A DNA stretch of 64,000 bases from Patescibacteria group bacterium (GTDB lineage: Bacteria > Patescibacteriota > Patescibacteriia > Magasanikbacterales > GWA2-37-8): NCBI GenBank assembly GCA_041661385.1, contig JBAZUP010000001.1, positions 704,907 to 768,906 of the forward strand, read 5' to 3'. Shown here one piece after another: positions 2,701-61,079 of this stretch. The translations under genes and the position numbers were made by a program. Within the stretch, counting starts at the first letter, position 1. Each line of letters starts with the position of its first letter. The notes beneath the pieces are model-generated. The model had not been told where the DNA came from and made no database searches. It saw nothing but the letters and a program-made list of their open reading frames with translations.

Positions 2701-3258
2701 ATGAAAGAACTGACCGATAATCAACTAATTACGGCATATCGCGAGGGTGATGGCAGTGCTTTTGAAAATTTGGTAAATAGGCATCTAAAATCTGTCTATT
2801 TTTATTGCGTCCGATTGGTCGGTAAAGACGAGGCGAATGACATGACTCAAGAGGTTTTTATTAAAGTTTGGAAACATCTCAATAAGTATGATGTTGAAAA
2901 AAATTTCAAAGTTTGGCTATTTCGAATTGCCCGCAATACCTGTCTCGATTATCTCCGTAAAAAACAACCGATGGTATTTTCGGATTTAAAAAAAGAAGAT
3001 GAAATGTCGGTTGAAGAAAATATTCCTGATCAGCGAAAAGGCGTAGAGGAAAAATTATTTGCTGCCGATCAAAAATCTGAACTTGATACGGCGCTTGCTA
3101 AATTATCAATACCAACTCAAGAAGTATTTGAGTTGTTTTATCGAGATGAATTAACTTTTAATGAAATAGCGGAAACTCTTAAACTATCCGTAAATACGAT
3201 AAAAAGCCGACACCGTCGGGGTATCGTTGAGCTCCAAAAAATATTAAAAGGTCAGTAA
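2701..3258 (+). CDS. ECF-type RNA polymerase sigma factor (sigma-70 family, regions 2 and 4)
   Basis: 185 aa; region 2 (FENLVNRHLKSVYFYCVRLVG...DMTQEVFIKVW..FKVWLFRIARNTCLDYLRK) and region 4 (LTFNEIAETLKLSVNTIKSRHRRG...L). Confidence 0.85.
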   Translation: MKELTDNQLITAYREGDGSAFENLVNRHLKSVYFYCVRLVGKDEANDMTQEVFIKVWKHLNKYDVEKNFKVWLFRIARNTCLDYLRKKQPMVFSDLKKEDEMSVEENIPDQRKGVEEKLFAADQKSELDTALAKLSIPTQEVFELFYRDELTFNEIAETLKLSVNTIKSRHRRGIVELQKILKGQ

Positions 3259-12813: not shown

Positions 12814-13434
12814 TTATTTCTCCGAAACTTTTTTGCCGAGCGAACCGCCCGGATGTATTTTGGCGAAATGCCTTTTTTGAAAACCCTTTATTTCATGGAG
12901 GGTGTTCGCAATGGCATCGGAAAGAGCAAGGGCCGCGATAACGCTGGTGGTCGGAGCCAGGTTAAAGGTGGTGCAGATAGTGCACGCCTCTTCCTTGACC
13001 CCGGTTTCAAGTGCTACGTCGGCTTTTTTAGCTATACTAGATTTATTATTCCCGGTGATGGCAATAATTTTAATATTAAGGTGGGAAAGGGAATTTACAA
13101 AAGCGATCATTTCTGTGGATTCACCACTGTGTGAATATACAATCACGACGTCTTCGTGAGTGATCATTCCAAGGTCGCCATGCAGCGCCTCAACCGGGTG
13201 GACAAACACACAAAAAGTGCCGGTAGAAGAAAGTGTTGCCGCTAGTTTTCTTGCGACAATTCCCGATTTTCCGATACCAGAAACCACGACTTTTCCTTTC
13301 GAATTTTTAAGTAATTTCAGGGCGGCAATGAATGCCTCGTTATCAAGATTATTTGATAATGCCATGATAGCTTCGGCCTCATTTTTTAGTACATGCCTGC
13401 CAATGGCCGCAAATCGTTCAAACTCTTTTGTCAT
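12814..13434 (-). CDS. SIS-domain sugar-phosphate isomerase (GmhA/KpsF N-terminal domain-like)
   Basis: 206 aa, SIS motifs GKVVVSGIGKSGIVARKLAATLSSTG...VVIVYSHSGESTE. Confidence 0.6.
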   Translation of the reverse strand: MTKEFERFAAIGRHVLKNEAEAIMALSNNLDNEAFIAALKLLKNSKGKVVVSGIGKSGIVARKLAATLSSTGTFCVFVHPVEALHGDLGMITHEDVVIVYSHSGESTEMIAFVNSLSHLNIKIIAITGNNKSSIAKKADVALETGVKEEACTICTTFNLAPTTSVIAALALSDAIANTLHEIKGFQKRHFAKIHPGGSLGKKVSEK

Positions 13435-13535
13435 ATTATGAACTCTAGCACAAAAATTAATACTAATCCAGCTCTTAGGTTAGCAAGTGTATATACCAAA
13501 AAATACCTAAGGATGTTACATAAAGGGTGCGGGAT

Positions 13536-13564
13536 TTGACTAAATATAAGCAATAAGATAATAT
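13536..13564 (+). promoter_or_regulatory. sigma70-like promoter for the ilv leader
   Basis: TTGACT-17 nt-TAATAT; the predicted TSS is a few nt before the leader-peptide ATG, so the leader is nearly leaderless. Confidence 0.5.
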
Positions 13565-13574
13565 TAATTTCAAT

Positions 13575-13634
13575 ATGAAACATTTTATCAACAGCATTAT
13601 CATTATTATTAGCGCCTACCCTCGGGCAGCCTAA
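13575..13634 (+). CDS. Ile-rich leader peptide (MKHFINSIIIIISAYPRAA)
   Basis: 19-codon ORF with five consecutive Ile codons (att atc att att att), seven Ile in total, immediately upstream of the terminator hairpin that precedes ilvA. Confidence 0.6.
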   Translation: MKHFINSIIIIISAYPRAA

Positions 13635-13674
13635 CTTGTTGTTGAAAGTTAGCCGCCCACGAGGGCGGTTTTTT
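13575..13674 (+). promoter_or_regulatory. transcription attenuator (leader peptide plus alternative antiterminator and terminator) controlling ilvA-ridA
   Basis: Terminator ccgccc-acga-gggcgg plus TTTTTT (13653-13674) lies 22 nt before the ilvA ATG. Leader segment ccctcg (13618-13623) is complementary to cgaggg, which overlaps the terminator loop and 3' arm, giving a candidate antiterminator. Confidence 0.55.
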
Positions 13675-13695
13675 AAATAATAAAAATATATTTTT

Positions 13696-14964
13696 ATGAG
13701 CACATCAACCGAACAAAAAAATACCGTTAGTTTGAGAATGATTGAAGAAGCCTCATTACGGCTTGCTGGTGTGGTACAAAGAACACCGCTTCAGCTTTCC
13801 AAACGTCTTTCCGAGCGTTATGGTGCAACCGTTTATTTGAAGCGTGAAGATTTACAGGAAGTACGTTCGTTCAAGATCCGTGGCGCCTACAATAAAATCA
13901 GTTCGTTAACGGATAGTGAAAAAACGCGCGGTGTGGTTTGCGCGAGCGCCGGCAATCATGCACAGGGCGTCGCTTATAGTTGTGCGACTTTAAAAATAAA
14001 TGGCGTAATATTTATGCCGGCCGTAACTCCTAATCAAAAAATTGAAAAAGTTCGTCAGTTTGGAAAATCTTTTGTCGAAGTTAAACTCGTCGGCAATACC
14101 TTTGATGAAGCCTCGGCTGAAGCGCAGAAATATTGTACTGAGAAAAATGCGGTGTTTGTTCATCCATTCAATGACCCGCTCACTATTGCCGGACAAGGAA
14201 CAATCGCAGAGGAGATTGATCAAAAATTAAATGGCGAATTGGATTATTTACTCGCGCCCATCGGCGGCGGCGGGTTGGTTTCCGGCTTAACAGCGTATTA
14301 TAAAGAGAAAAATAATCCGGTAAAAATTATTGGCTGCGAACCAAGCGGCGCGGCGACCATGCATACGGCGCTAAGCAATGGCAAAGTAGTTACTCTCGAC
14401 CAAATTGATACCTTTGTCGATGGTTGCGCGGTAAAAACGGTCGGCGATAAAACATTTAATATTTGTGAACAGTATTTAGACCGCGTAGTGGTAGTTCCGG
14501 AAGGAAAAATTTGCACTACCATGATTGAGCTTTATCAAAATGACGGCATTGTCGCGGAACCGTCCGGCGCTCTGCCGATTTCAGTGTTGGATGAAGTGTC
14601 GGAGGAAATAAAAGGCAAGGTAGTCGTTTGTGTTCTAAGCGGCGGAAATAATGATATTCTTCGTTACCCGGAAATAATGGAGCGGAGTTTGGTTTATCAG
14701 GGCCGCAAACATTATTTTATTATTGAGTTTGCGCAAAAGCCCGGTCAGCTTCGCGACTTCTTAAATCAGGCGCTTGGACCAACCGACGACATCTCCCGCT
14801 TCGAATATATAAAGAAGACCAACAAGGAAAAAGGCCCGGCGTTAATCGGTATTGAACTGAAAGATAAAAAAGATTATGAACCATTGCTCGAAAGAATGCG
14901 GGATATTGAATTAAATTTCAAAGTGATAAATAGCAATGACATGCTTTATCAATATTTAATTTAA
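13696..14964 (+). CDS. ilvA: threonine ammonia-lyase, biosynthetic (threonine dehydratase with C-terminal regulatory domain)
   Basis: PLP site RSFKIRGAYN, G-rich loop PIGGGGL, 422 aa with a C-terminal ACT-like regulatory domain. Confidence 0.85.
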   Translation: MSTSTEQKNTVSLRMIEEASLRLAGVVQRTPLQLSKRLSERYGATVYLKREDLQEVRSFKIRGAYNKISSLTDSEKTRGVVCASAGNHAQGVAYSCATLKINGVIFMPAVTPNQKIEKVRQFGKSFVEVKLVGNTFDEASAEAQKYCTEKNAVFVHPFNDPLTIAGQGTIAEEIDQKLNGELDYLLAPIGGGGLVSGLTAYYKEKNNPVKIIGCEPSGAATMHTALSNGKVVTLDQIDTFVDGCAVKTVGDKTFNICEQYLDRVVVVPEGKICTTMIELYQNDGIVAEPSGALPISVLDEVSEEIKGKVVVCVLSGGNNDILRYPEIMERSLVYQGRKHYFIIEFAQKPGQLRDFLNQALGPTDDISRFEYIKKTNKEKGPALIGIELKDKKDYEPLLERMRDIELNFKVINSNDMLYQYLI

Positions 14965-14967
14965 AAT

Positions 14968-15345
14968 ATGTTTGAAATTATTCAAACCGATAATGCGCCC
15001 AAGGCGGTCGGCCCATATTCACAAGCTGTAGTGAGTGGAGGTTTTGTTTTTTGTTCAGGTCAGATTGGCCTTGAGCCAAAAAGCGGTAATTTGGCAGACG
15101 GGGTAGAGGCTCAAACCAAACAAGTTTTGCAAAATATTGATGCTGTACTTGCGGAAGCTGAGGTAGAAATAAATCAGGTTGTAAAAACAACTATTTATCT
15201 AAAAAACATCAGTGATTTTGCTGTCGTTAATGAAATTTACGGTAAATTTTTCGGCGACCACCGCCCGGCTCGTTCGACAGTAGAAGTTTCAAATTTGCCC
15301 AAAGGGGCACTCGTAGAGATTGAGGTGATAGCTTCACAGAATTAA
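14968..15345 (+). CDS. ridA: RidA family reactive enamine/imine deaminase
   Basis: 125 aa YjgF/RidA fold signature (APKAVGPYSQAV..G..F.SGQIG..P..G...D.V..Q..Q.L.N..A.L..AG...VVK.T.YL). Pairs functionally with ilvA, whose enamine product it deaminates. Confidence 0.85.
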   Translation: MFEIIQTDNAPKAVGPYSQAVVSGGFVFCSGQIGLEPKSGNLADGVEAQTKQVLQNIDAVLAEAEVEINQVVKTTIYLKNISDFAVVNEIYGKFFGDHRPARSTVEVSNLPKGALVEIEVIASQN

Positions 15346-15617: not shown

Positions 15618-16895
15618 TTACAAAGCTGTTATCTTTAAATACTTAAAAATATCTTGAGTTGCAATTGCCCCCTCTGAACATGCAGTGACAATTTGCCGGA
15701 AGGAATTTGATCCGGTTGTAATATCGCCAGCCGCCCAAATCCCTTTCTTATTTGTGGTCTGGTCTGCCTTGGTTTTTATATAGCCTTTTTCATCTGTTTT
15801 CAGCTTGAGTTGGTTTATAAGAATCGGATCTGGTTCGGAACCTATTTCAACGAATAATCCGTCCAGAACAATTTTTGATATTTCATTACTTATATTTTTT
15901 ATCTCAATGCTTTCTAATTTTTGATCGCCTTGAATGCTGGTAATATCTGAGTTCAAAATCAGTTTGATTTTGAGGTTATTCTTTACCTGATCAATCCAAG
16001 CCGTTTCACCACGTAATTCTTCACCACGATAAATTTGATAAACATCCTTTGCAATGTCTGCCAAATAAAGAGCCGCCGTGCTAGCACTGTCACTGCCGCC
16101 AATAACCGCTACCGTCTTATTGGTATAAAATGCGGCGTCGCAAGTAGCACAGTAAGAAATACCCCTGCCAATTAGTTTACTTTCATTTTCAATATTCAAA
16201 TGTTTATGTTTGGTGCCAGTTGCGAGTAAAATAGTTTTGGTTAAAATAACTTCTTCGTTTGAAAGGACTAGTTCATAGCCTGCTCGTTTTTTAGAGATTT
16301 GAGTTACGCCGGTATTTTTGAATGGGGTTTGAAGTTGGTTAACATGGTCCCACATTTTCTTGGTTAGATCCATGCCGGATATTTCAATTTCAGAAGGGTA
16401 ATTGCAAATTTTATGTGAGGATGTCATGAGTCCGCCGGTAAGCTCGCCTACAAGTACATGGTCAATTTTATAACGCGAGGCGTACACTGCAGCAGTTAGG
16501 CCCGCGGGTCCGGTACCGATTATGCATAAATCATGAATTTCAGAAGTTGCCTTATTTTTTCTTATTTTTCTTGTAGGTGAAATTTTTTCTAAAATAGCAA
16601 CAAAGTCTGTTTCTGCTATTTCACCTGATAATCTGTTATTTTGAAGTTCTCCATTAATATAAAAGAGTAGGGTTGGTGAACCGCTTACTCCTAATGTTTG
16701 AGCTAGAGGTCGATTTTCCTGACGATGTATTTTAATAAATTGAAAGCCGGTATATTTAATCGCTAGGCGCTCAAAAATTGGCGCCAATTTTTCGCAAGGT
16801 GGGCAATCAGTTGAAAAAAAATCAACAACAACATATTTATTATTTTTAACTATGTCAAAAAAATCCGTTTCAGTTTTAATAACTTTAATTTCCAT
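15618..16895 (-). CDS. thioredoxin domain fused to a thioredoxin-reductase-like flavoprotein
   Basis: N-terminal Trx fold with CPPC (VVVDFFSTDCPPCEKLAPIFE). C-terminal FAD site IIGTGPAGLTAA and redox-active CATCD, the TrxB-type CxxC. The dinucleotide-binding motif is modified (VIGGSDSAST). Confidence 0.65.
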   Translation of the reverse strand: MEIKVIKTETDFFDIVKNNKYVVVDFFSTDCPPCEKLAPIFERLAIKYTGFQFIKIHRQENRPLAQTLGVSGSPTLLFYINGELQNNRLSGEIAETDFVAILEKISPTRKIRKNKATSEIHDLCIIGTGPAGLTAAVYASRYKIDHVLVGELTGGLMTSSHKICNYPSEIEISGMDLTKKMWDHVNQLQTPFKNTGVTQISKKRAGYELVLSNEEVILTKTILLATGTKHKHLNIENESKLIGRGISYCATCDAAFYTNKTVAVIGGSDSASTAALYLADIAKDVYQIYRGEELRGETAWIDQVKNNLKIKLILNSDITSIQGDQKLESIEIKNISNEISKIVLDGLFVEIGSEPDPILINQLKLKTDEKGYIKTKADQTTNKKGIWAAGDITTGSNSFRQIVTACSEGAIATQDIFKYLKITAL

Positions 16896-16898
16896 AAA

Positions 16899-17240
16899 CT
16901 ATTTAACTGATTTAACAGCTTCGTCTATTTCGCGGGCTAGTGTAGCTTTTGGGCGAAAGCCGATAAAGTCCTGAATAATCTTACCCTGATAAAATAATTT
17001 CATATTGGGAATGCTGGCGATTTGGTATTGAATAGCAAGCGGCATGTGTTCAGCTACCTCAGTATCTAGCTTGGCAATTTTTACTTTATCTTTTAATTCG
17101 TCTGATAGCTGGTCAAGAATCGGTGCCATCATTTGGCAGGGTCCGCACCAGGGTGCCCAAAAATCTACCAAAACAGGCAGGGTAGATTTTAATACCTCAG
17201 CTTCAAAAGTTTCGTGAGTTAGGTTTAATGCTTTAGCCAT
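16899..17240 (-). CDS. trxA: thioredoxin
   Basis: 113 aa with the canonical WCGPC active site (VDFWAPWCGPCQMMAPIL). Confidence 0.9.
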   Translation of the reverse strand: MAKALNLTHETFEAEVLKSTLPVLVDFWAPWCGPCQMMAPILDQLSDELKDKVKIAKLDTEVAEHMPLAIQYQIASIPNMKLFYQGKIIQDFIGFRPKATLAREIDEAVKSVK

Positions 17241-18594: not shown

Positions 18595-19830
18595 ATGAAA
18601 AAAATTGATTTTCTCATTATTGGCGGAGGGGCGGCCGGTACTACGGCCGCTGAAACTTTGCGTCAAAATAATAAAGACGCAAGTATTATTATTGTTTCCG
18701 ATGAACCGTACCGTTTTTATTCGAGAATTTTGATTTCTAAACCTTACTTTTTTTTGGAAAAAATTCCGTTTGAACAGGTGTGGTTGAAAACGGAAGCTTG
18801 GTATAGTGAAAATAAGATCGAGCTTTTGATGGGTCGTTCGGCAATTCATCTTGATCAAAAAAATAAAATTGTAAAATTAGACGACGGCACGGAAATTGTC
18901 TATGGTAAGTTGTTGCTCGCAGTCGGTGGTCATGCCCGCCGCTGGAATGTTTCGGGAGCTGATAAAAAAGGCGTGGGGTATCTGCGCAATTTGGAAGAAG
19001 CAAAAGAGATGATGAAAAATGTAAAAACCGCGAAACGCGCAATCGCGATTGGTTCCGGTTTTGTAAGTTTTGAGATTGCTGAAATTTTACGCAAGGCTGG
19101 TCTTGAAACTAGTATTGTCATGATGGAGCCGTATTATTGGTATCCGGTTTTTGATGAAGAGTTAGGAAAGTTTATTGAAAGAGCCATGGAAAAGGAAGGT
19201 GTAAAACTAATTCGCAAAGCGGAAGTTGCGGAAGTGCTTGGTAAAGATAAGGTAAAAGGCGTCTTATTAAAAGATGGATCTAAATTGGACTGCGAAGTGA
19301 TAGCGTGCGGTATTGGGTTAGATTATAACCTGGGTTGGGTGAAAGAGTCGGGAATTGAAACCAATCGCGGCATTTTAGCCAATGAGTATTTACAAACAAA
19401 TAATCCTGATATTTTTACCGCTGGGGATTGTTCTGAGTTTAATGATATAATTTTAAAAGAACGTATTCAGCTCGCGAATTGGGTAAATGCCCAAAGTCAG
19501 GGTACGGCGGCGGCATTAAACATGCTTGGAAAAAACGAGCCTTTCAAACTAGTATCATTTTATACCGCGCAGGCTTTTGGAATAAATATTTCCATGGTGG
19601 GAGATATTAAGGTCGGAGAGGGTAAGACGGTTATTTCTCGCGGCACACCGGAAGCAAATTCAATTGCCCGCATCATGATTAAGGATAATAAAATTGTCGG
19701 AGCAACGCTTTTAAATCGTACACCGGAATTATTTCAAATTTCAAAATTAATCGAGCAAAGGGTGGATGTTTCCGGACAGGAAAATAATCTTGCTGATGCA
19801 AATTTTAATCTAGCAACACTTATTTCATAA
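18595..19830 (+). CDS. FAD-dependent pyridine nucleotide-disulfide oxidoreductase (NAD(P)H:ferredoxin/rubredoxin reductase-like)
   Basis: GxGxxG FAD site (IIGGGAAGTTAA), a second dinucleotide fold (AIGSGFVSFEIA), and TAGDC near the C-terminal third. Confidence 0.65.
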   Translation: MKKIDFLIIGGGAAGTTAAETLRQNNKDASIIIVSDEPYRFYSRILISKPYFFLEKIPFEQVWLKTEAWYSENKIELLMGRSAIHLDQKNKIVKLDDGTEIVYGKLLLAVGGHARRWNVSGADKKGVGYLRNLEEAKEMMKNVKTAKRAIAIGSGFVSFEIAEILRKAGLETSIVMMEPYYWYPVFDEELGKFIERAMEKEGVKLIRKAEVAEVLGKDKVKGVLLKDGSKLDCEVIACGIGLDYNLGWVKESGIETNRGILANEYLQTNNPDIFTAGDCSEFNDIILKERIQLANWVNAQSQGTAAALNMLGKNEPFKLVSFYTAQAFGINISMVGDIKVGEGKTVISRGTPEANSIARIMIKDNKIVGATLLNRTPELFQISKLIEQRVDVSGQENNLADANFNLATLIS

Positions 19831-19834
19831 ATTT

Positions 19835-20311
19835 ATGCCCGAAGAAAGTAAAAAAATTAAAGTTGGCTGGTTTTCTTTTTCGTGTTGTGAAGATAATCTA
19901 GTAGTATTTACCGAGCTCATGAATGATCACTGGCAAGAATGGAAAAAACTTTTCGATTTTCGCCACGTCCGCGCCTTGCGTTCGGTAAATGTTTTAGATG
20001 AACTCGACATTGCTTTCATTGAAGGAGCGCTCGCTTCGCAAAAGCATGTTGATAAGGTTAAAGAAATTAGGGCCAAATCTAAAACGGTAGTCGCGGTTGG
20101 AGCTTGCGCAGTAACCGGCATGCCGGCCGGCCAACGCAATTATTTTTCCGAGGAACAAAAGAAAAATATTCAGTTTTTGGTGGATAAATTTGAAGCTTTG
20201 CCAAAAGTTTTGAAAGTTTCTGATGTGATTAAGGTAGACGCATCTGTCGGTGGCTGCCCCATGGATCCGAATAAATTTTTGGAGGCGGTTAAATTATTAG
20301 TTAAATCGTAA
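19835..20311 (+). CDS. [NiFe] hydrogenase small subunit, group 3 (NuoB/Oxidored_q6-like)
   Basis: 158 aa; proximal cluster Cys pattern (FSCCED...GACAVTGM...GGCPMDP). Confidence 0.7.
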   Translation: MPEESKKIKVGWFSFSCCEDNLVVFTELMNDHWQEWKKLFDFRHVRALRSVNVLDELDIAFIEGALASQKHVDKVKEIRAKSKTVVAVGACAVTGMPAGQRNYFSEEQKKNIQFLVDKFEALPKVLKVSDVIKVDASVGGCPMDPNKFLEAVKLLVKS

Positions 20312-20315
20312 TTTT

Positions 20316-21620
20316 ATGCATCAAGTTGATTTTGATTTAAATACCGGCGAACTGACTAAGGTTGAAGGTGCAGCAGAGCTTAATTTGCGAGTGCGAAATG
20401 GCAAAGTTGAATATGCCCATTTTGGCATTATTGAATATAAACGATTTTTTACTGAAGCGATGAAGGGCAAGCCGGTTGATGCGATTCCTCAGCTGGTCGC
20501 GCGTATTTGCGGCACTTGTTCAAACGCACACCTCCTTTGTTCAATTGAGGCCTGTGAACACGCTCTAGGAATCGTGCCGACCGAACAGACCAAATTTTTA
20601 CGACTACTTACCATGTACGGTCTAAATATCCGTGATCATGCGCTGCACCTGTATTTGTTCTGCATGCCCGATATTTTTGGTAAAGATTCATTCATGGATT
20701 TTGATGAAAATGATTCATTTCAAGATCAAATGCTTCATGATGCTTTTAATATAAAAGCGGTCGGTAATCAGCTAGCGATAATGGTCGCCGGCAGGTCTGT
20801 TCACGCTACTTACCCGGCGGTGGGTGGGTATTTGCATGTACCAACAAATAAAGAAGTTGAAGAAATAATTAAGAAATTGCGTTCGATTCGTCCGGCGGTA
20901 ATTAGGCTTATTAATTTTTTTGCGGAAAAAAATCCGTTTCACTTTGACCGGAAAACCGATTTTCTCGCTATGATTTCCGATCGTTGTGGTTTTATCGACG
21001 GAGTAATTAAATCGAGCACCGGTGAAGTAATTTCGAAAGAAAATTTTTCTAAACATCTCGAGCACACGGTACTTGAATACTCACAGGCTTCGGCTTATAA
21101 ATATAAGGGTCGACCATATATGGTCGGCGCACTTGGGCGCCTTAATATGGCGAGCGACCGATTGCATCCGAATACGAGAAAAGATGCCGGTTCAGCCATC
21201 AAACAATTTCCTTCTACCGACATATTTAAAAATAACCTTGCTCAGGCCATTGAAATTCTTCATGCAATTGATGATTCTATTGAAATTCTTACTAAGCGTG
21301 AGTTCAAGTTAGAACAGATTCCGGAAATTAAATACCGCGATGCGGTCGGAATTGGCGTCATTGAGGCGCCACGCGGACTTTTGTATCACAAAGTAACCGT
21401 TGGGGCAGATGGCCTTATAAAAGAAGGCGAAGTAGTGGTCCCAACTGGTCAGAACCAAACCAATATTGAAGAAGATATTACAACTTTGGTAAATGAAATG
21501 TTGCCCGACCACCCGTCGATGGAAAAAATAACCTTTGAAATTGAAAAACTTATTCGTGCCTATGACCCGTGTATGTCATGCGGCTCGCACTTCCTGAAGG
21601 TGAATGTAGATAAAGAGTAA
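20316..21620 (+). CDS. [NiFe] hydrogenase large (catalytic) subunit, group 3
   Basis: N-terminal L1 motif RICGTCSNAH and C-terminal L2 motif DPCMSCGSHF, the Ni-Fe ligating Cys pairs. 434 aa. Confidence 0.85.
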   Translation: MHQVDFDLNTGELTKVEGAAELNLRVRNGKVEYAHFGIIEYKRFFTEAMKGKPVDAIPQLVARICGTCSNAHLLCSIEACEHALGIVPTEQTKFLRLLTMYGLNIRDHALHLYLFCMPDIFGKDSFMDFDENDSFQDQMLHDAFNIKAVGNQLAIMVAGRSVHATYPAVGGYLHVPTNKEVEEIIKKLRSIRPAVIRLINFFAEKNPFHFDRKTDFLAMISDRCGFIDGVIKSSTGEVISKENFSKHLEHTVLEYSQASAYKYKGRPYMVGALGRLNMASDRLHPNTRKDAGSAIKQFPSTDIFKNNLAQAIEILHAIDDSIEILTKREFKLEQIPEIKYRDAVGIGVIEAPRGLLYHKVTVGADGLIKEGEVVVPTGQNQTNIEEDITTLVNEMLPDHPSMEKITFEIEKLIRAYDPCMSCGSHFLKVNVDKE

Positions 21621-40310: not shown

Positions 40311-41012
40311 TTAATTATTTTTTAAAGTTAAGGGTTCGTGTCCGGCAGGTAATTTTACCACAATGTGTCTTGTGATGGTAGAGGTTTTGCCGTGTTTTTT
40401 GGTTGCAGAAATTTGAATAGTATTTACCCCGGCGCTAAGATCGATTTGGGCGGAGAATCTACCTTCTTCGTTGACCATTACTTCGGCGCCATTTATTGTC
40501 AGGCGGGACTCTTTTTCAGTTTCTCCTTCAATAACGGTATGAGCGCTCGTTGCGACCAATCCTTCAATTGGCGAAAAAATTGCTAGCTGGGGCGGTTGTA
40601 AAATTCCGCGTACTTGCCAGATAAGATAGCCGGCAAAGACTATTACCATGGCGAAAGCGGCAAAATTACGGACAAAAATAGAAATGGAAGCAAAAGGAAA
40701 AAGACGAACGCCGCGCCTTGGATGACTTAGGTTTGCGTCGGCTAATCCAAATTCATTTTCAAATTGTTCAGTGCAATCGACGGGAGAAAGTTGAAATATT
40801 TTGGCGACTTCTCGAACATAAGCGAGGCGATGCGCTTTGGCTTCAGGAAGTTTTGAATATTGTCCGTTTTCTAATGCCTCCAAATATTTTAGAGGAATTC
40901 GGGTAAGCTTAGAAACAGAAATTAAATCAAGGCCGCGATCTTCTCGGGTCATTCGTATTTTATCTCCCAATCGTACTGCTGGGGTCATTTTTTTGATGCA
41001 GAAGATTGTCAT
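40311..41012 (-). CDS. RodZ-like cytoskeleton protein (XRE HTH, TM, C-terminal DUF4115-like domain)
   Basis: N-terminal HTH (LGDKIRMTREDRGLDLISVSKLTRIPLKYLEALENG), a TM (FAAFAMVIVFAGYLIW), and a C-terminal beta domain. Confidence 0.55.
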   Translation of the reverse strand: MTIFCIKKMTPAVRLGDKIRMTREDRGLDLISVSKLTRIPLKYLEALENGQYSKLPEAKAHRLAYVREVAKIFQLSPVDCTEQFENEFGLADANLSHPRRGVRLFPFASISIFVRNFAAFAMVIVFAGYLIWQVRGILQPPQLAIFSPIEGLVATSAHTVIEGETEKESRLTINGAEVMVNEEGRFSAQIDLSAGVNTIQISATKKHGKTSTITRHIVVKLPAGHEPLTLKNN

Positions 41013-43300
41013 ATTTTTTCTTCTTCGCTGTCGGATTTTGGTTCAGTGAGAACTACTCCGCCAGAATCTAAAGTTTGTTCGTTGACTGGCATTTCTTCCG
41101 GTGGCGCATCCATTAGGTGTTCGGTAAATACTTCGCGAGGCTTGGCTCCGATGCCTGGACCTACTATACCAGCATCCTCTAATTGGTCAAGGATTTTTGC
41201 CGCTCTCGCATATCCGATACTGAGCCGGCGTTGTAAATAAGTAGCGCTTGCCTTGCCGCTTTCCAATACTTCATTTTTTGCTTCTTCAAACATTGGATCG
41301 TGAGCGTCCGATGGGCCGCCAAATAAATTCATTGTGCCACCGCCGCCAATTTTTTCAACGATAGCTTCGTTGTATTGTGGCGGCTCGTCACCGCGAACAA
41401 ATTTTACAATATCTTTTATTTCATTGACGGTAATAAATGCGCCCTGAAGACGTTTGGGCGCGCTCATATCCGTAGTCTGATAAAGCATATCGCCGTTGCC
41501 AAGAAGTTTGTCGGCACCAGCCGCGTCTAAAATAGTACGTGAATCAATAACAGATTTTAATTTGAAAGAAATACGTCCCGGCATATTGGCCTTCATGAGA
41601 CCGGTAATAACATCCGCGCTTGGCCTTTGAGTCGCTACTACCAAATGAATGCCCGCCGCCCGTCCTTTTTGAGCAAGACGAACGATACTGGATTCAGCAT
41701 CTGCAGCAGTTTGATGCATTAATTCCGCCCATTCATCTACCGCTAGTACAAGGTACGGCATTGTTTCTTGAGATTGTTTGTTAAACTCCTCAATATCTCT
41801 GGTGCCGGAGAGAGCAATCGCGCTAAATCGTCTTTCCATTTCGGTAATTAGCCAGCGTAAAGCATTTACCGCCTTGTTGGCTTCGACTATAACTGGAGTT
41901 AATAAATGTGGAATACCGTTGTACGGAATAAATTCAACTTGTTTCGGATCGATCATAATAAAACGCAAAGTCTCGGGAGTATTTTGAAAAAGTAAACTTG
42001 AAATAATAATATTCATGCAGACCGTTTTGCCAGACCGGGTTGTGCCGGCGACCAAAAGGTGAGGCATTTTTGTTAGATCAACAATATTAACTTTTCCAGC
42101 CACATCTTTTCCGAGCGGTAGCGTCATTTTATTTTCGCGATTTTTAAATTCTTTACTTTCAAGCAGTTCATGAAGAGTGACAGTAGCTTTTTTTTGATTC
42201 GGCACTTCAATACCAACTAAAGATTTACCGGGAATGGGCGCTTCAATGCGAACGGTATCGGCGGCGAGCGCCATCGCAAGATTAGAATTTAAACCGGTGA
42301 TTTTAGACAATTTAATTCCATCGTAAGGTTTTAAAGAATATTGAGTGACGGTAGGTCCGACCTGTACTTCGCCCATTTCCACTTCAATATCGAAGTTCTT
42401 TAAAGTGTTTTTAATTATTTCTGCGTTAGCCGTAATATCTCCAGAAGTTGGTTTGCTTTTTGAAGTTTGTAAAATACCCAAAGGCGGGAGTCGGTAATTT
42501 GAATTTGGTTTGGAAAGAACAATTTTTTCTTGGGGGCTATTTTCTTCTTCAATTTGCTCTTCTTCTTTTTCAATCGTTTCTTCTTCATCTGCATTTTCAA
42601 CGGCACTAATTTTGTGGCGCGCAAATTCTCGTTCTTCCTCTTCAACTTTTTCTTCCTCAACTTCTTTCGGCAAAACTTTTTCATAATCGCCATTGATAGC
42701 GAATTTTACTTTTTCTTTGCGGAACGTTTCAAAAAAAGCAATTATTTGTTTTCCGATCCAACCAAACATCAAAAATACTTTTTTATTTAATTCGACAATT
42801 CTTGCGAGTGAAGTGTTAAAAATAAAAATGATAGAAGCTAACCAAAGACCAAATAAAATAATCGCGGCGCCCCAATAAGATACATAAGTAAGAAGCGGCC
42901 AAGCAAGGGCGAGGCCAACTAAGCCGCCGCCTTCACCTTGAAGGGCTAGATCAACCATTTTGTCTAAGGGCTTTTGTAAATGAACTAAACCATTAAAACT
43001 TAGAAAAAACATTACGCTACCGATAAGGTGAGTGGATCGGTAGGAATATTCCATGTCTTTAATAAGAAGTACACCAACAATAAGTAAAATAAAGGGAAAA
43101 ACATAACGAACCTGGCCAAAGGTAATCGCAAGGAGTGAGTCTAGAAAATGGCCAAGAACACCGGCCAATGAAAAAAAGCTAAGAATTGATAAACCGCCAA
43201 TAATAAAAAGGATAATAGAAATAAGACCGCGGCTAACGTCGGCTTCTAATAAATTTTCTTGTTTTGGTGGCCTGGCCTGGTATTGGCGGTAACGGGTCAT
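41009..43300 (-). CDS. ftsK: DNA translocase FtsK/SpoIIIE
   Basis: N-terminal TMs, an acidic linker, motor Walker A (GTTRSGKTV), Walker B (VLAVDEWAELM), and the C-terminal gamma domain (ATYLQRRLSIGYARAAKILDQLEDAGIVGP). Confidence 0.9.
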   Translation of the reverse strand: MTRYRQYQARPPKQENLLEADVSRGLISIILFIIGGLSILSFFSLAGVLGHFLDSLLAITFGQVRYVFPFILLIVGVLLIKDMEYSYRSTHLIGSVMFFLSFNGLVHLQKPLDKMVDLALQGEGGGLVGLALAWPLLTYVSYWGAAIILFGLWLASIIFIFNTSLARIVELNKKVFLMFGWIGKQIIAFFETFRKEKVKFAINGDYEKVLPKEVEEEKVEEEEREFARHKISAVENADEEETIEKEEEQIEEENSPQEKIVLSKPNSNYRLPPLGILQTSKSKPTSGDITANAEIIKNTLKNFDIEVEMGEVQVGPTVTQYSLKPYDGIKLSKITGLNSNLAMALAADTVRIEAPIPGKSLVGIEVPNQKKATVTLHELLESKEFKNRENKMTLPLGKDVAGKVNIVDLTKMPHLLVAGTTRSGKTVCMNIIISSLLFQNTPETLRFIMIDPKQVEFIPYNGIPHLLTPVIVEANKAVNALRWLITEMERRFSAIALSGTRDIEEFNKQSQETMPYLVLAVDEWAELMHQTAADAESSIVRLAQKGRAAGIHLVVATQRPSADVITGLMKANMPGRISFKLKSVIDSRTILDAAGADKLLGNGDMLYQTTDMSAPKRLQGAFITVNEIKDIVKFVRGDEPPQYNEAIVEKIGGGGTMNLFGGPSDAHDPMFEEAKNEVLESGKASATYLQRRLSIGYARAAKILDQLEDAGIVGPGIGAKPREVFTEHLMDAPPEEMPVNEQTLDSGGVVLTEPKSDSEEEKI

Positions 43301-59565: not shown

Positions 59566-59737
59566 GTGTCGTTGTTGAATCGATTGATTTTGAATGAAAA
59601 AGGCTTAAATAAGCGAATTTTATAGTTCATTAAAACTTAATTGTTACCGAAAATGTGAGTGGCAAAAAGTGGCTAATATTGGCTGTTTTTTGCCGCCCAT
59701 AAGGACGGTACAACCAAAAAACAAAGAGGTTCACGAA

Positions 59738-60972
59738 ATGACCACCGGAAACATCGGAACTCCCGCCCTCAAGCTGGTGACCACGTCTTCGGAGGTCAAG
59801 CCCTCCGACGAGCAGCTCTTCGCAATCGCCGAGGAAGAGCTGGGAAGCAAGCCCGACCCCGAGATTCTCGCTCAGCCTGGCGTCCGCGTCATGATGATCG
59901 AGATCTGGATGGAGCGGCAGGCCGAGCTCGAGGAGCAGAAGCGCGCCGCCGACAAGCTCGAGGCCGACCAGAAGGAGAAGGAGCGTCAGCGCGTGCTCTC
60001 CGAGCAGGCGAACAAGCTCCGCGAGCGCTCGAACAAGCGCTTCAAGCCCGGCGCCCCCAAGGGCCCGGTCGTCTTCCTCTCGAATGAGGACATCCAGAAG
60101 GCCGTGCAGAACACGGTTCTCGAGGAGGCGAAGAAGTCGCGTCCGGACCTCCTGCCCGACTGGGTCAGGGAGAAGGATGATGTGGCCGCCATCCGCGGCT
60201 ACCTCTGCGGTGAGCGGCGCAACATCATGGAGTACATGCAGGCAAACCCCGCCGAGATGAAGTTCGTCACCTGGGCCACCAAGGCCATCGCCGACATCCA
60301 GGCCGAAATCGTCTTCGTGACGAAGCTCGGCTTCCGTGCCTTCAACAAGGCCGACCTCACCAAGGAGGGGCATTACTGCCCGACGCCGAAGTACCAGCAG
60401 TATATCCTGCCGAGGCTGAAGGCGAGCAGCTTCTATCAGAAGCTGACGAGCCAGGTCGGCGGCACCAACACCGACTCCGCCAAGTCGGTGGAGAAGGAGG
60501 TGCCGGTCGACCACATCGCCGCTGCGAGGAAGCGGACCGAACAGCTCCTCGCGGAGGAGAAGATCCGCCTGGACATCGGAGGTCGTCTGGTCAAAGCCGA
60601 CTGCGACGAGCAGTCGGTGGTGAGCCGGGCCGACCGGATCATGAAGAAGTTCCAGGGCACCGCCGTGGAGCGTCTCACCCAGGCCGCGGTTGGTCAGGGT
60701 GTGCTCGCGAAGACGAGCTCGGATCCGCAGCTGTGCGAGCAGGCGATGCAGAGCGCGGCTCTGTACTCGAAGGCGGCCGATATCGGCACCGACGAGTTCG
60801 CGGCGCTCATCGACGAGCGCATCGCGAACGCCCACTCCGCGGCGGACAAGCCGTACGCCGTGGTGGAGCGGCCCCTCTCTCCACCAACCAGCAGAAGAAG
60901 CAGTCCGAGGCTGCGCGCAGGGCTCGGAACGCGAAGAAGAGCGGTGAGAAGAAGAACAAGAAGAAGCAGTAG
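59738..60972 (+). CDS. high-GC horizontally acquired gene, hypothetical protein with a coiled-coil and charged N-terminus and a Lys-rich C-terminus; apparent -1 frameshift near 60868-60880
   Basis: About 62% GC with GC3 near 90%, against a roughly 38% GC host. SD AAGAGG sits 7 nt before the ATG. Frame 2 (59738 onward) holds the G/C-ending codon bias until the C-run at 60872-60875. From there the bias continues in the neighbouring frame, which ends NQQKKQSEAARRARNAKKSGEKKNKKKQ* at 60972. The in-frame read-through to 61054 uses atypical AGA/AGT codons. The 475-aa antisense ORF (59630-61057) is a GC-composition artefact. Confidence 0.55.
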
Positions 60973-61012
60973 AGTTAGCGACCAACAGGTCGCAAAACTC
61001 TCGCAACAACCA

Positions 61013-61049
61013 GACAGCCAAGGCAATCCCTTGGCTGTCTTTCGTTTTT
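61013..61049 (+). terminator. rho-independent terminator after the GC-rich gene
   Basis: gacagccaagg-caatc-ccttggctgtc followed by tttcgttttt. Confidence 0.7.
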
Positions 61050-61050
61050 G

Positions 61051-61079
61051 TTGACAAATAAAAGATAATCTCATAAAAT
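61051..61079 (+). promoter_or_regulatory. sigma70-like promoter for the ileS leader
   Basis: TTGACA-17 nt-TAAAAT; about 205-nt leader before the ileS ATG. Confidence 0.55.

Follow-up and report, generated by a model that had tools for sequence, protein, structure and literature searches.

In a stretch of 64,000 nucleotides (nt) from a Patescibacteria group bacterium (contig JBAZUP010000001.1, positions 704,907 to 768,906), hereafter called the window, we found a compact regulatory element directly upstream of ilvA, encoding threonine ammonia-lyase, and ridA, encoding a Rid-family enamine/imine deaminase. The element comprises a promoter, a short open reading frame (ORF) with a run of isoleucine (Ile) codons and an intrinsic terminator, and its RNA can fold into mutually exclusive structures. 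With a probability of roughly 0.8, we consider it to be a functional Ile-responsive, ribosome-mediated (leader-peptide) transcription attenuator controlling ilvA-ridA in this member of the candidate phyla radiation (CPR). A ribosome-stalling architecture specific to isoleucine and controlling both genes had been proposed in an earlier note on this DNA, and all features that can be read at the sequence level were present in a workable geometry. The positions of all elements are given in Table 1.

Leader peptide with a run of isoleucine codons

The promoter is followed by a short ORF with start and stop codons of its own, and its tandem Ile codons precede ilvA, which is the first structural gene and belongs to the pathway making Ile. 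IlvA catalyzes the committed step to this amino acid. The 19-codon ORF with five consecutive Ile codons described in the earlier note was borne out, with one correction: the leader peptide contains six Ile among its 19 codons and not seven, the sixth being located outside the run at codon 5. Six-frame translation of the whole window showed no further run of at least five Ile, and runs of four were found at 10 other places. We also shuffled the 261-nt intergenic region, which has an A+T content of 68%, with preservation of its dinucleotides. Only 7 of 20,000 shuffles gave an ATG-started ORF of 8-40 codons with at least five consecutive Ile.

Terminator, antiterminator and structural switch

The leader ORF is separated from ilvA by an intrinsic terminator, as the earlier note had said. 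The terminator arms (AGCCGCCC-ACGA-GGGCGGTT) form an 8-bp stem with 6 G-C pairs, the last two stem pairs are overlapped by the T6 run, and the distance from the end of this run to the ilvA ATG is 21 nt rather than the 22 nt given before. The upstream gene, encoding a KpsF-like SIS-domain protein (12814-13434), is divergent and lies on the minus strand, so that the hairpin at 13651-13670 cannot serve as its terminator. About 20 strong intrinsic terminators were found in the window, and every one that was checked for its position sits 3' of a gene on the same strand; the source genome uses canonical intrinsic terminators at gene ends. Unlike these other position-checked terminators, the one in the ilvA leader follows nothing but the 19-codon ORF.

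For the structural analysis we folded the stretch 13575-13676, either free or with the bases covered by a ribosome masked (footprint model). The free leader RNA had a minimum free energy (MFE) of -29.4 kcal/mol, which is the sum of two hairpins of -14.7 kcal/mol each: the terminator (3:4) and a 1:2 hairpin spanning 13588-13645, in which UCAACAGCA pairs with UGUUGUUGA and UUAGCGCC with GGGC.G.CUAA. Constrained folding revealed an antiterminator (2:3) that sequesters the entire 5' arm of the terminator and thereby excludes it. Its core, GGGC.GC.UAACUU:AAGUUA.GC.GCCC (13624-13658), closes an 8-nt loop and has a free energy of -16.1 kcal/mol, and its basal helix is CCCUC:GAGGG. The CCCTCG:CGAGGG pairing that the earlier note had put forward as the antiterminator does exist, but it forms only the basal helix of this much longer structure. 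The alternative folds suggested there as a check showed that the antiterminator is far from thermodynamically negligible, with -24 kcal/mol compared to -14.7 kcal/mol for the terminator.

The footprint model switched between these structures according to the position of the ribosome. For a stall at Ile codon 5 or at Ile codons 8-11 the MFE structure was the antiterminator, with -24.0 to -26.5 kcal/mol. A ribosome stalled at codons 8-11 covers the 5' strand of the 1:2 hairpin, and the best fold with the terminator forced reached -19.0 kcal/mol in this situation, which is weaker than the antiterminator. When the ribosome was placed at the stop codon (mask to the stop plus 10 nt), the terminator alone remained, with -14.7 kcal/mol. 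The UAA lies within the 5' arm of the antiterminator, and a terminating ribosome would therefore prevent antiterminator formation. The 116-nt leader region folded better than each of 200 shuffles (z = -3.06). Judged by these models, all four segments of a trp/thr-type attenuator are in place.

Conservation in two close relatives

Among about 5.8 billion protein clusters only two loci were found to be close relatives, L082 and L083, both of which also carry the ilvA-ridA pair. Conservation of the Ile-run ORF in related genomes, which the earlier note had named as a check, was seen in L082. Here IlvA is 91% identical, and the leader peptide (MNLFSNNIIIIISASPGAA) again has 19 codons, with the stop position and the terminator as in the window. 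The five-Ile run is maintained as ATT ATA ATT ATT ATT with a synonymous change from ATC to ATA, and further synonymous changes in the leader are GCC to GCA, CCT to CCC and GCC to GCG. The N-terminus of the peptide (codons 2-7) has diverged; at 9% divergence of IlvA, the leaders differ at codons 2, 3, 5, 7, 15 and 17. L082 showed the same computed footprint switch, including the placement of the stop codon. The AGC/AAC codons ahead of the Ile run in L082 are not the same as in the window but still pair with the invariant GUUGUUGUUGA, which would explain the persistence of Ser and Asn codons at this place.

In L083, with an IlvA of 85% identity, the leader is cut by the contig end, and the 3' part is kept with both terminator and antiterminator. 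The equivalents of the antiterminator had -24.9 kcal/mol in L082 and -20.7 kcal/mol in L083. Helix 1 of the antiterminator was 100% paired in all three sequences, and two of its basal pairs change on both sides (U-A/C-G/U-G and C-G/G-U/A-U). Searches with nhmmer and blastn over 163 ilvA loci gave no leader homologues beyond L082 and L083.

Promoter and initiation of leader translation

The promoter that the earlier note had placed close upstream of the leader ORF was found as a sigma-70-like TTGACT-17-TAATAT sequence spanning 13536-13564. Given the short distance between its -10 hexamer and the leader ATG, the 5' untranslated region (UTR) of the leader is predicted to be only about 2-4 nt long, and transcription would start a few nt before the ATG. 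The leader ATG is not preceded by a Shine-Dalgarno sequence. This is normal here because the genome is poor in such motifs, with Shine-Dalgarno-like motifs in 5 of the 43 ATG-started genes of the window. The further claim that the leader mRNA is nearly leaderless appears plausible, as this scarcity and the comparison with L082 suggest: the -35 hexamer is identical there, the -10 hexamer reads TAAGAT and the spacings to the -35 hexamer and to the ATG are unchanged, while the 17-nt spacer has diverged.

Several genes of the window begin 6-10 nt past a -10-like box, for example those at 12814-13434 (minus strand), 2701-3258 (plus strand) and 41009-43300 (minus strand), and one such gene start reads TGCTAGAGT-TCATAAT-ATG. 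The sequence suggests that leaderless mRNAs are common in the source genome. In about 8 of 14 other CPR ilv/leu leaders the -10 hexamer ends 6-7 nt before the leader ATG, and with such a gap these leaders would be truly leaderless.

Proposed mechanism

From these elements we infer translation of the leader, termination in vivo and a response to Ile as follows. Transcription would start a few nt before the leader ATG with almost no 5' UTR, and a ribosome would translate the 19 codons while the RNA polymerase makes the next approximately 100 nt. When charged tRNA-Ile is scarce, the ribosome would stall in the five-Ile run and cover segment 1. The freed segment 2 could then pair with the emerging segment 3 to form the antiterminator, the 5' arm of the terminator would be sequestered, and transcription would read through into ilvA-ridA. 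When Ile is plentiful, the ribosome would reach the UAA in segment 2 and block the antiterminator, so that the terminator could fold and end transcription about 21 nt short of ilvA. Without any ribosome on the leader, the 1:2 and 3:4 hairpins would both form, and transcription would terminate as well.

Several points weigh against this reading. The evidence is wholly computational. Lacking a Shine-Dalgarno sequence, the leader would have to rely on initiation from the predicted 2-4-nt 5' UTR. A ribosome on the last Ile codon (codon 12) led the model to favour the terminator with -19.5 kcal/mol over -16.1 kcal/mol for the core antiterminator alone, and this stall is the only weak point of the equilibrium model. 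Only two close relatives were available in the collections searched, one of them cut by a contig end. The covariation of the antiterminator was not significant, as 115 of 500 shuffles reached the observed value, because three sequences are too few. Changes in the terminator were one-sided only (C-G to U-G and G-C to G-U), with pairing kept in L082 and L083. Further genes of the Ile pathway were not found among the 26 larger ORFs scanned in the 64-kb window. For some of the leaders from other genomes described below (L046, L010/L016/L026 and L069) the simple model showed no switch, and we counted them merely as having a leader plus terminator. There is also a precedent for caution in Streptomyces coelicolor, where mutating the regulatory codons of a similar putative ilvB attenuator, identified in silico, is reported to have produced no response (PMC1262725).

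Alternative explanations

The alternative that survives best, which we still consider improbable, is that the hairpin is a conditional terminator that responds to a factor unrelated to leader translation, e.g. a small molecule, an uncharged tRNA or an RNA-binding protein, the Ile-rich ORF being incidental. The absence of a Shine-Dalgarno sequence and the weak covariation of the alternative helices would fit with this, and a change of sensing system ahead of one and the same gene has been documented (PMC2965389). However, a scan of the whole window against Rfam at gathering thresholds returned three tRNAs only; amino-acid operon leaders (Leu_leader, Thr_leader, His_leader and Trp_leader among them), T-boxes and riboswitches were all missing. 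When 13400-13760 was scanned permissively, the matches were unrelated small RNAs with 14-21 bits compared to gathering scores of at least 43; the sole leader family among these matches was Leu_leader (RF00512), on the wrong strand and with 16 bits compared to a gathering score of 50, and a T-box was not matched in this region even at E-values up to 10. An incidental ORF would further not account for the maintenance of the Ile run, frame, length and stop position in L082 through synonymous changes amid diverged neighbouring codons, nor for a stop codon in segment 2, exactly where ribosome-mediated attenuation requires it.

A slightly less probable alternative is that the short ORF is an independent gene for a hydrophobic micropeptide, with the hairpin as its terminator and ilvA transcribed from a promoter of its own. 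Promoter, ORF and terminator do make up a complete mini-gene, and leader peptides that act in trans are known, for example peTrpL (PMC7298713). Yet the 21 nt between the T-run and the ilvA ATG, in which the promoter scan found no promoter-like site, are not conserved in L082, and outside the Ile run the peptide is poorly conserved, as shown by the six differing codons. The mutually exclusive 1:2, 2:3 and 3:4 structures would be left unexplained, as would the fact that Ile/Leu/Val-rich short ORFs recur before ilv genes in particular.

Chance, i.e. ATT repeats of an AT-rich intergenic region that happen to lie beside a hairpin, is very improbable: the base composition and the four-Ile runs elsewhere would allow for it, but the shuffled sequences, the uniqueness of the five-Ile run in the window, its conservation in L082 and the fold z-score all speak against it.

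Leaders before ilv genes in other genomes

We then compared the leader-peptide attenuator with the upstream regions of other ilvA loci. Of 155 loci for which 150 nt or more could be read upstream, 15 had a short Ile-rich ORF and then a terminator immediately ahead of ilvA. In L011 (Microgenomates), ilvC is followed by MKSIFAGIINIITTR and a terminator and then by ilvA-ilvD, and the model computed the same switch. L046 (Saccharibacteria) encodes the leader MAKGIISIIGIIITSFGGALA followed by a terminator upstream of ilvA. Two loci of Levyibacteriota carry comparable arrangements: in L006 the leader MIRNQNVIIALIITR and a terminator precede ilvB, and in L014 the leader MLRNQNIIVALIITR and a terminator are followed by what is likely ilvB, the start coordinate of which is imprecise. 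In L003 (leader MKNNFVIIALVLIHPV) and L020 (leader MKTRMFLGVVILITR) the terminator is followed by a large downstream gene.

Ile/Val/Leu-rich leaders of this kind, of which MIRNQNVIIALIITR and MINRTQVVVALLLIRS are examples, were found upstream of a large gene at nine loci (Table 1). All of them have a G+C-rich terminator with a T7 run behind them. Their hosts are Levyibacteriota, other Patescibacteria and some metagenome-assembled genomes (MAGs) labelled otherwise. Several share a signature of ...I(I/L)(T/A)R-stop / CGCGG ... CCCGC-loop-GCGGG. The leaders of L003, L006, L011, L014, L020, L024 and L089 belong to the same phylum-level group as the window element and resemble it in the position of the promoter -10 hexamer 6-10 nt before the ATG, the long antiterminator and the G+C-rich terminator; they have 14-20 codons and a T7 run. 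They differ in mixing Ile, Val and Leu codons and in sharing the ...IITR-stop / CGCGG ... CCCGC-loop-GCGGG signature, which is missing from the window element. With nhmmer and blastn no sequence similarity was detected between the window element and the other CPR leaders that would point to common descent.

In relatives with 60-70% IlvA identity (L002-L008, L012 and L014) an Ile-rich leader directly upstream of ilvA was not found. At the more closely examined of these loci ilvA lies inside an ilv/leu operon, after ilvB-ilvN or leuA, and an internal position of ilvA was seen in many CPR relatives, e.g. ilvB-ilvN-leuA-ilvA-ilvD in Roizmanbacteria. These operon contexts together with the recurring leaders indicate that the IlvA clade is biosynthetic in the CPR and that leader-peptide attenuation is a recurrent device there.

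A separate group comprises high-GC soil lineages (L010, L016, L026, L095, L097, L098, L099, L134, L139 and L148), with MAG labels including Limnocylindria, Chloroflexi and Eisenbacteria. They share a conserved short ORF, M[VMI]T[AV]TRAGASIIGI[TR], about 140 to 44 nt upstream of ilvA, followed by the terminator GACCGCCCGGAGGCGGTC with a T6 run. The simple footprint model gave no clear antiterminator for this group, and in two of the loci the free RNA pairs the 5' part of the leader with the 3' arm of the terminator.

Genes and features in the neighbourhood

The IlvA of the window scored 635 bits with NF006390 (cutoff 421) and 608 bits with TIGR02079, and matched the Pfam domains PALP and Thr_dehydrat_C. 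IlvA and RidA both lie well above their NCBIfam cutoffs. The named homologues closest to IlvA come from Roizmanbacteria, Levyibacteriota and Microgenomates. NCBI lists the identical IlvA sequence (MFA6105647.1) under Patescibacteria group bacterium, a MAG, which confirms that the DNA is of CPR origin; the organism also occurs in sequencing run SRR6484324. The ilvA stop is separated by 3 nt from the ridA start, and the two genes are presumed to be co-transcribed.

Table 1. Coordinates of the ilvA-ridA leader elements in the window and of Ile/Val/Leu-rich leaders at other loci
Feature	Position	Strand	Remarks
-35 hexamer TTGACT of leader promoter	13536-13541	+	promoter scan; identical in L082
-10 hexamer TAATAT	13559-13564	+	promoter scan; ends 10 nt before leader ATG
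Leader peptide ORF	13575-13634	+	19 codons; ATG 13575; TAA 13632-13634; product MKHFINSIIIIISAYPRAA
Segment 1, 5' strand of anti-antiterminator	13588-13617	+	sub-helices 13588-13596 and 13609-13617 flank and overlap Ile run
Regulatory codons	13596-13610	+	ATT ATC ATT ATT ATT, five consecutive Ile codons
Antiterminator hairpin (2:3)	13619-13665	+	47 nt; -24.0 kcal/mol; constrained folding
Segment 2	13624-13645	+	pairs with segment 1 (1:2 hairpin, -14.7 kcal/mol) or segment 3; holds UAA 13632-13634
Intrinsic terminator (3:4)	13651-13674	+	stem 13651-13658/13663-13670; loop ACGA; T6 13669-13674; -14.7 kcal/mol
ilvA, threonine ammonia-lyase	13696-14964	+	422 amino acids (aa); one C-terminal regulatory domain; NCBI protein MFA6105647.1
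ridA, Rid-family enamine/imine deaminase	14968-15345	+	125 aa; TIGR00004, 173 bits
Ile/Val/Leu-rich leaders, L006	1955-2049; 5664-5766		
Ile/Val/Leu-rich leaders, L014	1947-2044; 5634-5761		
Ile/Val/Leu-rich leader, L003	731-828		
Ile/Val/Leu-rich leader, L020	426-521		
Ile/Val/Leu-rich leader, L024	574-664		
Ile/Val/Leu-rich leader, L089	476-571		
Ile/Val/Leu-rich leader, L022	2082-2197		
Ile/Val/Leu-rich leader, L040	1884-2009		
Ile/Val/Leu-rich leader, L158	230-357		

Just downstream of ilvA-ridA, a gene at 15618-16895 (minus strand) encodes a thioredoxin-reductase-like protein of 425 aa with an N-terminally fused thioredoxin domain. It adjoins a separate thioredoxin gene, a gene with an ArsR-type helix-turn-helix (HTH) domain and a gene for a small YgaP-like membrane protein, in a cluster that includes 16899-17240 (minus strand). 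A similar redox cluster in L083 comprises thioredoxin, an HTH gene and a pair of YgaP-like genes, with no gene called as a reductase. At 18595-21620 a pyridine-nucleotide-disulphide oxidoreductase adjoins a match to the NiFe-hydrogenase large subunit (PF00374, 100 bits).

Further along the window, 59700-60900 forms a G+C-rich island with 60-67% G+C in 300-nt windows compared to about 40% for the genome. Long ORFs run on both of its strands, at 59630-61057 (minus strand, 475 aa) and at 59669-61054 (plus strand, 461 aa). The minus-strand ORF has no Pfam match, and the translation of the plus-strand ORF looks like a real, non-repetitive protein. The island may be a horizontally acquired gene. A terminator ahead of the gene at 445 was considered as a second attenuator and rejected, since it follows a preceding ORF on the same strand, which we take, without a family search, to encode ribosomal protein S18.

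Implications for Patescibacteria

If the element works as proposed, some CPR bacteria, which are usually regarded as auxotrophic symbionts, keep genes for Ile synthesis and regulate them by sensing charged tRNA-Ile; the attenuator would imply that reduced CPR genomes retain a regulated Ile pathway. Ribosomes would then have to trail the RNA polymerase closely in this group of organisms, and translation of the sensing ORF would probably begin on an mRNA almost without a leader, in a genome where Shine-Dalgarno motifs are scarce. The similar leaders before ilvA/ilvB in Microgenomates, Levyibacteriota and Saccharibacteria suggest a usable annotation signature for uncultured genomes.

A broader interpretation is that Patescibacteria which keep branched-chain biosynthesis generally regulate it by leader-peptide attenuators translated from leaderless mRNAs or mRNAs with a 2-4-nt leader. 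The window element would then be an Ile-only specialisation for the committed enzyme IlvA and the detoxifier RidA, apart from the remaining pathway. We hold this interpretation tentatively and give it slightly less than even odds. If true, it would point to tight coupling of transcription and translation and to leaderless initiation of the 70S type in the CPR, and it would provide a sequence signature to find amino-acid-responsive regulation in uncultured reduced genomes.

Mechanistically, the proposed device is textbook attenuation and would leave the view of how such switches work unchanged; its value is taxonomic and practical. Full-text searches covering about 8 million papers gave no report in which Patescibacteria appeared together with leader peptide and attenuation, or the candidate phyla radiation together with transcription attenuation.

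Comparison with known attenuators

Leader-peptide attenuators have reportedly been studied by comparative genomics by Vitreschak et al. in 2004 (cited in PMC1262725). In Escherichia coli, the ilvL leader of ilvGMEDA combines codons for Ile, Leu and Val and regulates an operon of five genes, thrL combines codons for Thr and Ile, and both leaders come with an ordinary 5' UTR that includes a ribosome-binding site. The window element resembles these leaders in its short ORF with tandem codons for the end product, its overlapping 1:2, 2:3 and 3:4 hairpins, the terminator just before the first structural gene and a stop codon that would let a terminating ribosome block the antiterminator. As in the E. 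coli ilv system, Ile codons would govern the expression of ilvA. Unlike ilvL and thrL, it has Ile as its only kind of regulatory codon, lacks a Shine-Dalgarno sequence, begins about 10 nt past the -10 box and would control no genes beyond ilvA-ridA. Sequence similarity to the E. coli leaders is absent, as no Rfam leader family was matched.

The statement of the earlier note that attenuators of this type are mostly documented in Proteobacteria is dated, as leader-peptide attenuation has also been described in Actinobacteria (PMC1262725) and in Firmicutes, including his leaders (PMC2965389) and ilv systems (PMC5864092, PMC5794164). Rli60 of Listeria monocytogenes is an experimentally validated ribosome-mediated attenuator of ilv-leu, with antiterminator and terminator hairpins of -10.3 and -17.1 kcal/mol (PMC5864092), and in Staphylococcus aureus a Leu-rich ilv attenuator peptide has been validated (PMC5794164). 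The window element resembles them in its short leader rich in branched-chain codons, which in these two cases is on the scale of 13 aa, and in hairpins of similar energies. Rli60 and the S. aureus attenuator differ in controlling nine-gene ilv-leu operons, in having ribosome-binding sites and in being subject to CodY, whereas the window element is Ile-only and stands before a separate ilvA-ridA pair.

With regard to initiation, the polycysteine attenuators of mycobacteria, which are built on leaderless short ORFs, offer a parallel (bioRxiv 10.1101/834739; background in PMC4633059). They belong to Actinobacteria, sense cysteine and act by a mechanism that does not rest on a canonical intrinsic terminator, and their leaderless status was measured, whereas that of the window element is predicted from the sequence. 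As in the mycobacterial attenuators, the sensing short ORF of the window element would come first on a transcript with little or no leader, and it carries tandem codons for the amino acid to be sensed. Compared to all of these systems, the window element would be a clean extension of attenuation to the CPR, the added aspect being a sensing ORF that is probably translated from an almost leaderless mRNA.

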